Assembly: GCF_964204645.1 (NCBI RefSeq)
Contig: NC_134027.1
Location: forward strand, 1,458,485-1,522,484
Direction of reading: 5' to 3'
Source: Tubulanus polymorphus
Lineage: Eukaryota > Animalia > Nemertea
Length of the DNA stretch: 64,000 nt
The notes beneath the pieces were generated by a model, which saw only the letters and a program-made list of their open reading frames with translations, had not been told where the DNA came from and did not search any database. A program made the translations under genes and the position numbers. This document shows, one piece after another, positions 6,801-43,330 of the stretch (position 1 is the first letter of the stretch; each line of letters begins with the position of its first letter).

Positions 6801-9800
6801 GGCAGTTGAATAGAAGAGTGGAATAGAGGGGCAGTTGAATAGAAGAGTGGAATTGAGGGGCAGTTTAATAGAAGAGTGGAATAGAGGGGCAGTTGAATAG
6901 AAGAGTGGAATTGAGGGGCAGTTTAATAGAAGAGTGGAATAGAGGGGCAGTTGAATAGAAGAGTGGAATTGAGGGGCAGTTGAATAGAAGAGTGGAATAG
7001 ATGGGCAGTTGAATAGAAGAGTGGAATTGAGGGGCAGTTGAATAGAAGAGTGGAATAGATGGGCAGTTGAATAGAAGAGTGGAATAGAGGGGCAGTTGAA
7101 TAGAAGAGTGGAATAGAGGGGCAGTTGAATAGAAGAGTGGAATTGAGGGGCAGTCGAATAGAAGAGTGGAATAGATGGGCAGTTGAATAGAAGAGTGGAA
7201 TAGAGGGGCAGTTGAATAGAAGAGTGGAATTGAGGGGCAGTTGAATAGAAGAGTGGAATAGAGGGGCAGTTGAATAGAAGAGTGGAATAGATGGGCAGTT
7301 GAATAGAAGAGTGGAATTGAGGGGCAGTTGAATAGAAGAGTGGAATAGAGGGGCAGTTGAATAGAAGAGTGGAATTGAGGGGCAGTTGAATAGAAGAGTG
7401 GAATAGAGGGGCAGTTGAATAGAAGAGTGGAATAGATGGGCAGTTGAATAGAAGAGTGGAATAGAGGGGCAGTTGAATAGAAGAGTGGAATAGAGGGGCA
7501 GTTGAATAGAAGAGTGGAATAGAGGGGCAGTTGAATAGAAGAGTGGAATAGATGGGCAGTTGAATAGAAGAGTGGAATAGATGGGCAGTTGAATAGAAGA
7601 GTGGAATAGATGGGCAGTTGAATAGAAGAGTGGAATTGAGGGGCAGTTGAATAGAAGAGTGGAATAGATGGGCAGTTGAATAGAAGAGTGGAATAGATGG
7701 GCAGTTGAATAGAAGAGTGGAATAGATGGGTAGTTGAATAGAAGAGTGGAATAGATGGGCAGTTGAATAGAAGAGTGGAATAGAGGGGCAGTTGAATAGA
7801 AGAGTGGAATTGAGGGGCAGTTGAATAGAAGAGTGGAATAGATGGGCAGTTGAATAGAAGAGTGGAATTGAGGGGCAGTCGAATAGAAGAGTGGAATAGA
7901 GGGGCAGTTGAATAGAAGAGTGGAATAGATGGGCAGTTGAATAGAAGAGTGGAATAGATGGGCAGTTGAATAGAAGAGTGGAATAGATGGGCAGTTGAAT
8001 AGAAGAGTGGAATAGAGGGGCAGTTGAATAGAAGAGTGGAATTGAGGGGCAGTTGAATAGAAGAGTGGAATAGATGGGCAGTTGAATAGAAGAGTGGAAT
8101 AGATGGGCAGTTGAATAGAAGAGTGGAATTGAGGGGCAGTTGAATAGAAGAGTGGAATAGATGGGCAGTTGAATAGAAGAGTGGAATTGAGGGGCAGTCG
8201 AATAGAAGAGTGGAATAGAGGGGCAGTTGAATAGAAGAGTGGAATTGAGGGGCAGTTGAATAGAAGAGTGGAATTGAGGGGCAGTCGAATAGAAGAGTGG
8301 AATAGATGGGCAGTCGAATAGAAGAGTGGAATAGAGGGGCAGTTGAATAGAAGAGTGGAATAGAGGGGCAGTTGAATAGAAGAGTGGAATAGAGGGGCAG
8401 TTGAATAGAAGAGTGGAATAGAGGGGCAGTTGAATAGAAGAGTGGAATAGAGGGGCAGTTGAATAGAAGAGTGGAATAGAGGGGCAGTTGAATAGAAGAG
8501 TGGAATTGAGGGGCAGTTGAATAGAAGAGTGGAATAGATGGGCAGTTGAATAGAAGAGTGGAATAGATGGGCAGTTGAATAGAAGAGTGGAATTGAGGGG
8601 CAGTTGAATAGAAGAGTGGAATAGATGGGCAGTTGAATAGAAGAGTGGAATAGAGGGGCAGTTGAATAGAAGAGTGGAATAGAGGGGCAGTTGAAAAGAA
8701 GAGTGGAATTGAGGGGCAGTTGAATAGAAGAGTGGAATAGAGGGGCAGTTGAATAGAAGAGTGGAATAGAGGGGCAGTTGAATAGAAGAGTGGAATTGAG
8801 GGGCAGTTGAATAGAAGAGTGGAATTGAGGGGCAGTTGAATAGAAGAGTGGAATTGAGGGGCAGTTGAATAGAAGAGTGGAATAGAGGGGCAGTTGAATA
8901 GAAGAGTGGAATAGAGGGGCAGTTGAATAGAAGAGTGGAATTGAGGGGCAGTTGAAAAGAAGAGTGGAATAGATGGACAGTTGAATAGCTAGACATAGTG
9001 AACATTTTTCAAAGATTATCAGTCAGTCGGTGTCAGGCCAGTAGTACTGGAGGGGTCTAGGAGATGTGAATGGTTGCAATTAGTCACAAAGAATCGTTGT
9101 AACAAATCACTGGTCGCAAGGGCGTGCAGATCTACGGATCTAAGCAATAGCAGCTGAATGTTTAACTGTTTCTCGTTCTACAAACCTTTGTGATAATCTT
9201 CAGGATCTTCCTGTTCATCGTCGTCAGAACCGAGGATCTGTTCCTCTTCGTCCTCATCGTCGTTATACGAGGAATCCTGTCGAGGAGGTTCAGACCTGAA
9301 AATATACAAAAATGCCACATCTTAATCAATTGTCGAATAATCAAATGAAACATTGGTTACAAAAAAACCATGTTTCAATTTAAACGAAAATACTGTAAAT
9401 TTGACTGATCTTTGAATGTATCTGTAGTGTATTTCGATTGCCGATTTCAAAATCAGATTTCAAATCATTTTGTTCCTGGTAGACCAGTGAGTTTGTAAGG
9501 ACATCAGCATAATATCAAATCAACCAACCAAATGAATAACTGGAACAATAATCCCTATTTCAAGATTAAAAAATTTGTGATTTCATCTGTAGGGAATATC
9601 TAATAAGAAACTCCACTGCCCATCAGCAAACATACACAAAATAGATGATATTTTGGACCCCTTGGATGTGTATGTAATTAATGGATGGCCCCCTGCAGAG
9701 GATATCAACAAAAAAACTACTACTGAAAAAGCCAATATCTTCGCACATCGATCCATCTTAATATCTTTGTTTCTTAGAACTGCTCTACAAGACAAGTTGT

Positions 9801-43330: not shown

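Follow-up and report, generated by a model that had tools for sequence, protein, structure and literature searches.

Results

The SRPK locus and its neighbours

The window, that is, the whole stretch of 64,000 nucleotides of Tubulanus polymorphus DNA that was analyzed, carries on its minus strand an SRPK gene with a row of candidate start exons within one intron of 34 kb (Table 1). The RefSeq protein of this gene, XP_074646954.1, is a computed model of 2072 residues that begins at the ATG at 14249 and joins the 1451-codon exon, the first constant exon and the kinase. It belongs to the SRPK family, with a kinase domain split into two Pkinase stretches, the Pkinase beginning at residue 1504, and its nearest relatives in the PDB are SRPK1 (E 3e-206), SRPK2 (E 4e-202) and Sky1p (E 2e-103), the SRPK1/2 structures being found at E<=1e-172. 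The protein cluster of this model has a single member, and no shorter Tubulanus SRPK isoform was found among the 120 matches listed of 7536.

Canonical exons 1 and 2 together encode the conserved start of the family, which is present in most orthologs; a 9-residue motif of exon 2 aligns weakly with ortholog N-termini (E 0.05-0.3). The acidic segment of the first constant exon is also found in orthologs. In the intron that follows it (9185-824), a frame scan gave no convincing phase-1 first exon, and the long repetitive ORFs there are due to two minisatellites, at 5874-8988 (29 bp x 107) and 2273-3019 (25 bp x 30).

SF3B3, which encodes a spliceosome subunit, lies head-to-tail with SRPK; one of its exons matches SF3B3 structures at E 4e-41, and its last codons appear near 44345. 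As this neighbour ends about 1 kb upstream of SRPK exon 1, the array is bounded and does not extend further upstream. The COG4-like gene is divergent from SF3B3, and the match of one of its exons to Pfam COG4_m (E 1.5e-4) is below the curated cut-off. A plus-strand frame at 63476-63622 has no Pfam match and resembles the start of a dynamin-1-like protein.

Table 1. Features of the window (first and last position; all lengths in codons refer to the open frame from the ATG to the donor)
Feature	Position	Strand	Size and remarks
Next constant exon of SRPK	715..823	-	Kinase domain start; remaining gene past window edge
First constant exon of SRPK	9186..9295	-	Acidic segment preceding kinase domain; entered in phase 2, left in phase 1
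Giant alternative first exon	9895..14249	-	1451 codons; predicted long helices, residues 601-1000
Possible first exon	19001..19086	-	28 codons; CAG/GTAAG donor; length not above chance
Alternative first exon	21876..22054	-	59 codons
Possible first exon	23735..23805	-	23 codons; not above chance
Alternative first exon	24911..25704	-	264 codons; poly-Gly, poly-Gln, R/K/P-rich
Tentative first exon, doubtful	28208..28236	-	9 codons; codon score 42nd percentile
Alternative first exon	30126..30364	-	79 codons; basic amphipathic start, poly-Asp
Alternative first exon	33101..33537	-	145 codons; hydrophobic/Cys start, then acidic
Alternative first exon	34943..35118	-	58 codons, basic
Tentative first exon, doubtful	39022..39125	-	34 codons, Cys-rich, weak donor
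Canonical SRPK exon 2	43076..43226	-	Phase-2 donor
Canonical SRPK exon 1	43315..43330	-	5 codons + 1 nt
SF3B3	~44345-57500	-	Spliceosome subunit
COG4-like gene	~57950-62800	+	

Candidate first exons and the chance expectation

All ten candidates of the initial annotation were reproduced at their coordinates, where each has its ATG, no in-frame stop, a length that leaves a remainder of 2 after division by three, and a GT at the phase-2 donor, the frames spanning 9 to 1451 codons. It had also counted GTRAG donors in seven of its eight better candidates, which is correct, the exception being the 9895 donor, which reads GTAGA. The two others, 39125 and 28236 (candidates are named by the position of their ATG), have non-GTRAG donors and ordinary composition.

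The chance expectation was obtained for the region 43075-14300 from 300 local dinucleotide shuffles of 1-kb blocks, equivalent to 900 phase trials. Phase 2 held five frames that open with ATG, run for at least 50 codons and end at GTRAG, with one in each of the other phases, and 0, 0 and 1 by phase on the opposite strand. The shuffles gave a mean of 0.64 such frames per phase and a maximum of 4 in the 900 trials, and they held 56.9 GTRAG sites versus 35 in the real intron. Taken together, the five frames 35118, 33537, 30364, 25704 and 22054 are credible. With a threshold of at least 20 codons the count is 7 versus a mean of 4.08, and 12% of trials reach 7; considered singly, therefore, 23805 and 19086 do not exceed chance. 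The four shortest candidates (9, 23, 28 and 34 codons) show no excess over the null; the initial annotation had itself cautioned that the shortest ones may be chance.

CpG density is at or above the 96th percentile in all five mid-size exons and GC is above the 95th in four of them (exon 35118 reaches the 99th percentile for GC and the 98th for CpG); in 39125 CpG density is unremarkable and the codon score is at the 30th percentile. The observed/expected CpG ratio is 1.27-2.36 in the six credible exons (these five and the 1451-codon exon) and 0.22-1.05 in the 300 nt past their donors. The codon score, which lacks frame specificity in 35118 and 33537, is a weak measure, since of the three SF3B3 controls one had its top score in a wrong frame and the background includes the candidates themselves. 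The 264-codon exon contains a perfect (CAG)24 poly-Gln tract at 25383-25454 and a poly-Gly tract at 25601-25653.

Each of the six credible exons has its first ATG at most 17 codons into the open frame (3-17 codons in the five mid-size ones), and no in-frame phase-2 acceptor was found near the frame start, which favours first exons over internal cassettes. Frame 28236 could alternatively be a 33-nt cassette using an in-frame acceptor at 28240. Initiator motifs upstream of the exons are not enriched (11 versus 9.1 expected). Counting the six alternative exons and the canonical start, about seven N-termini are credible, and two further exons, 23805 and 19086, may bring the number to nine. The initial proposal of at least nine is credible for about seven; nine are not established.

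Three of the mid-size exons, 35118, 33537 and 30364, share features at their starts: within the first 25 residues there is no acidic residue, the net charge is +4 to +10 and 9-12 residues are hydrophobic, and the first 30 residues include 1-3 Cys with no transmembrane stretch. These features and the hydrophobic moments were read with no control set; they suggest that such starts may serve for anchoring to membranes, lipids or organelles.

The 1451-codon exon is coding and constrained

Of the letter differences seen in run X2, 40 of 221 were listed, and 31 of these 40 fall inside the long frame, between 9930 and 12549. They comprise 19 synonymous and 10 replacement codons and no stop, and third positions hold 20 of the 31 (P 2e-5 to 2e-7), with a pN/pS of 0.14-0.20 for the listed differences of this stretch. 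As the polymorphism is mostly silent and introduces no stop, the long exon is protein-coding and constrained, at least across 9930-12549.

The encoded module is nearly three times as long as the longest N-terminal extension among orthologs, which has 545 residues before the acidic motif, the comparison covering proteins of up to 1,138 residues and their cluster members. Residues 401-600 and 701-900 are charged and proline-free, and for residues 601-1000 AlphaFold2, run on the single sequence, predicts helices, one of 76 and one of 221 residues (mean pLDDT 80, pTM 0.28). In run X3, contigs 18 and 19 have loose ends at about 10650, at a short in-frame repeat of this exon, which are probably a length polymorphism.

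Read data

Of five sequencing runs, four were compared over the region 9080-29070, none of the runs listed being recorded as RNA; the results draw, besides the letter differences, on 15 of 41 joints, 20 of 672 loose ends and 26 of 6058 pieces. X1 is flat and DNA-like, with a depth of 30.6 over the long exon versus a comparison depth of 31.3. X2, whose kind of library is not on record, is uneven, with a mean depth of 13.2 in seven bins of the long exon versus 2.65 in 17 other single-copy bins, and from this unevenness we read it as RNA; bins of low X2 depth (e.g. 27756-28422, depth 0.11) were not counted as silence. X3 runs through three donors unspliced and is ambiguous, and X5, guessed to be RNA, gave two 21-letter matches and no real cover in this region. 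Two very high-copy dispersed repeats lie at about 24766-24880 and 27290-27610 (summed X1 depth 50,715 and 13,262), the former beginning about 30 nt past the 24911 donor.

In X2, record 9 breaks off at the 9895 donor and leaves 26 loose letters, the number that a k=31 graph predicts if splicing joins 9895 to the constant exon and another AG-ending partner is met; with the 21876 junction in the X2 graph 24 letters would be expected, and the count thus implies its absence there. The end of record 16 (depth 22.3), at 24909, is the point at which the spliced and unspliced forms from donor 24911 are predicted to part. By their coordinates, with the letters unseen, these contig ends fit splicing from donors 9895 and 24911. 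A further X2 contig, 22191-22562, lies just upstream of exon 22054. No splice to 9295 is among the 15 joints listed of 41. For the exons other than the longest we infer splicing to the constant exon, and contig geometry backs it for 24911 only.

Similarity searches with the alternative exons

The candidates had been described as sharing no visible similarity, and our searches bear this out: the best BLASTP match among them has E 0.15 and no BLASTN match reaches E<0.01. Nor is there DNA similarity among the 400-nt stretches ahead of the ATGs (11 regions), which argues against a shared promoter element, although a very short motif could escape this search. Compared with 238 ortholog N-termini, the Tubulanus alternative exons gave no match at E<0.5, and no Pfam family was above cut-off for any of them; matches of the 264- and 79-codon exons were low-complexity, below cut-off, and were rejected. 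An Atlas search with the 145-codon exon was without match, and a homolog search with a 40-residue query returned nothing among 19 candidates. The 1451-codon exon has no Pfam family and no Atlas match, and among 7978 scored candidates its own RefSeq protein was the one match. Its last 402 residues found 0 matches among 1.84 billion representatives, a weak blank since the search missed the protein itself too.

N-termini of SRPK orthologs

Annotated SRPK isoforms of orthologs vary at the same junction. We counted at least nine starts in Octopus sinensis among 16 proteins (eight coding and one bare Met, one of them the canonical start) and at least nine in O. bimaculoides among 13 proteins from two annotation sources. 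At least five were found in Mizuhopecten, at least four each in Haliotis rufescens, Crassostrea virginica, Periplaneta and Cryptotermes, and at least three each in Biomphalaria, Littorina and Macrobrachium. These counts are lower bounds from the clusters read, and they refer to protein starts of computed models rather than to mapped exons. With eight coding N-termini in the Octopus sinensis models, the view of the initial annotation that the Tubulanus array is larger than any SRPK array known to it is not supported.

In the octopus RefSeq sets (e.g. XP_029642351.1, XP_036362902.1), as proposed for Tubulanus, many N-termini are joined to the same acidic constant segment. Unlike in Tubulanus, these computed N-termini have 4-36 residues, share no sequence with the Tubulanus exons, and come with an optional Ser-rich segment. 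Some alternative starts recur in related taxa; for example, cockroach, termite and Anabrus share one, three oyster genera another, and Biomphalaria and Elysia a third. Such recurrence points to constraint within lineages and would imply turnover between them.

Vertebrate SRPK2 also joins variable N-termini ahead of the same acidic segment and has the canonical start motif in common; six N-termini appear only on pooling 15 ruminant proteins of several species, and none is long. The statement of the initial annotation that vertebrate SRPK2 and fly Srpk79D have a few alternative N-termini is in line with these proteins and, for the fly gene, with the accessible text of the sources cited below. 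As separate observations, in some annotated SRPK isoforms of mussels, a scallop, a prawn and cattle the acidic exon is skipped and a different N-terminus goes straight onto the first kinase exon, and models from cephalopods, gastropods and clams include an optional segment that separates the variable start from the acidic exon.

Discussion

Our results describe an SRPK gene in which more than one coding 5' exon is in frame with one constant exon: the canonical start, the long exon and five more above chance. We regard it as likely that alternative promoters select one of about seven unrelated N-termini for a single SRPK kinase, and that this serves its localization. In this scheme the six unrelated coding first exons and the canonical start would each have their own promoter, each first exon would be spliced in phase 2 onto the same constant exon, and the different N-termini would send one kinase to different cell sites or tissues. 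Separate promoters would fit the lack of an upstream acceptor and the drop in CpG past the donors, initiator motifs being at background level, and targeting in Tubulanus is suggested by analogy with the fly. Each exon probably emerged on its own from intron sequence, not by duplication, with turnover between lineages, and the predicted rod of about 220 residues in the 1451-residue module would suit a scaffold.

Among the closest known systems is Drosophila Srpk79D (isoforms PB/PE versus PC/PF), which belongs to the same kinase family and places different N-termini on a shared kinase through alternative promoters. In the portions of the fly reports available to us, Srpk79D has two transcription starts, the N-terminal domain from the alternative promoters carries targeting information, and both isoform types rescue (PMC2759580); its N-terminus is required for axonal transport and co-localization with Bruchpilot, the other N-terminus giving no rescue (PMC2737616). 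The targeting step proposed here leans on this case, where an alternative N-terminus decides between active-zone and cell-body location. The fly has two N-termini (PMC2759580, PMC2737616, as far as the available text goes) whereas Tubulanus has about seven credible ones, one of them of 1451 residues, and localization by the N-terminus is demonstrated in the fly whereas for Tubulanus it is proposed. The initial proposal is supported as regards alternative coding first exons on one constant kinase, by the RefSeq model, by five frames versus 0.64 expected, by the lack of in-frame acceptors near the starts of the credible frames and by the contig geometry, and targeting is their likely purpose by reference to Srpk79D.

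A different explanation is that only two or three starts are real (the canonical one, the 1451-codon exon and perhaps the 264-codon exon), the rest being open GC-rich patches of intron or non-coding exons. The single RefSeq model among the matches listed agrees with it, as do read support at two donors only (9895 and 24911), the lack of homologs of the alternative exons and the chance-level lengths of the four shortest frames. It has to explain, however, five frames of at least 50 codons in the required phase, a number unreached in 900 null trials although the shuffles were richer in GTRAG, and the extreme GC (4 of 5) and CpG density (5 of 5) of the mid-size frames, and we consider it unlikely. 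Still less probable is that the frames are internal cassettes, which would follow exon 2 and precede the constant exon, or that separate nested genes end in them. Models of Octopus, Littorina, Pomacea and Mercenaria do have an optional segment at this position, 28236 has its in-frame acceptor at 28240, and three internal AG sites of the long frame pass the filter; however, eight of the ten open frames lack a phase-2 acceptor, no symmetric phase-2 cassette passed a scan of this intron, and the frames end at donors rather than stops, with the RefSeq model starting at the ATG at 14249.

The initial annotation compared the gene with clustered protocadherins and UGT1A. In clusters of that type every variable exon follows a shared promoter element and the cluster is regulated through CTCF. 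The gross layout, variable first exons in tandem on shared constant exons, is indeed common to Tubulanus SRPK and to clustered protocadherins, UGT1A and GCNT2, and one such join is present in the RefSeq model. The variable exons of those genes are duplicated and similar and encode the same domain (PMC1885805, in its accessible part), whereas the Tubulanus exons are unrelated and very unequal in size, so that the label of a protocadherin/UGT1A cluster is not supported. A diversity cluster of the protocadherin type, with each cell choosing promoters stochastically and mutually exclusively, which this layout might recall, is hardly credible given exons of 9 to 1451 codons without paralogy in protein or DNA, including the 400 nt before each ATG (11 regions), and the alternative promoter of mammalian SRPK2, which is LTR-derived in pig, human and mouse and tissue-specific (testis) in what is available of PMC10839656. 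Another comparison is with genes of the plectin/NOS1 type, which have multiple dissimilar first exons (PMC1885805, same part) and with which no homology to SRPK is implied.

Alternative-promoter choice among unrelated N-termini is thus mostly an ordinary design, which works like fly Srpk79D and joins many genes with dissimilar first exons. The one unusual part of the array is its giant, constrained, orphan first exon. In the literature searched, most subscription papers lying outside it, no paper describes a large array of first exons in SRPK, and none relevant was found on SRPK with Tubulanus or Octopus; the available portion of PMC10952393 contains nothing on N-terminal arrays. A much more speculative extension, to which we give limited credence, is that a bilaterian-wide slot before the SRPK acidic exon gives birth to targeting modules from intron DNA. 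All nine N-termini would then be real here, including the orphan 1,451-residue module as a rod-and-disorder scaffold under purifying selection that would convert a splicing kinase into a structural one able to anchor itself, at synapses or in sperm for instance. No paper describing this slot as a general feature of SRPK genes was found.

The mechanism itself is already known. The annotation of this gene, which currently holds the longest isoform only, under the name 'uncharacterized protein', can be corrected accordingly. The nemertean is added to the evidence that mollusc, arthropod and vertebrate SRPK genes swap N-termini at one junction, and this shared junction makes the fly result, that the N-terminus sets the location of the kinase, testable across animals.
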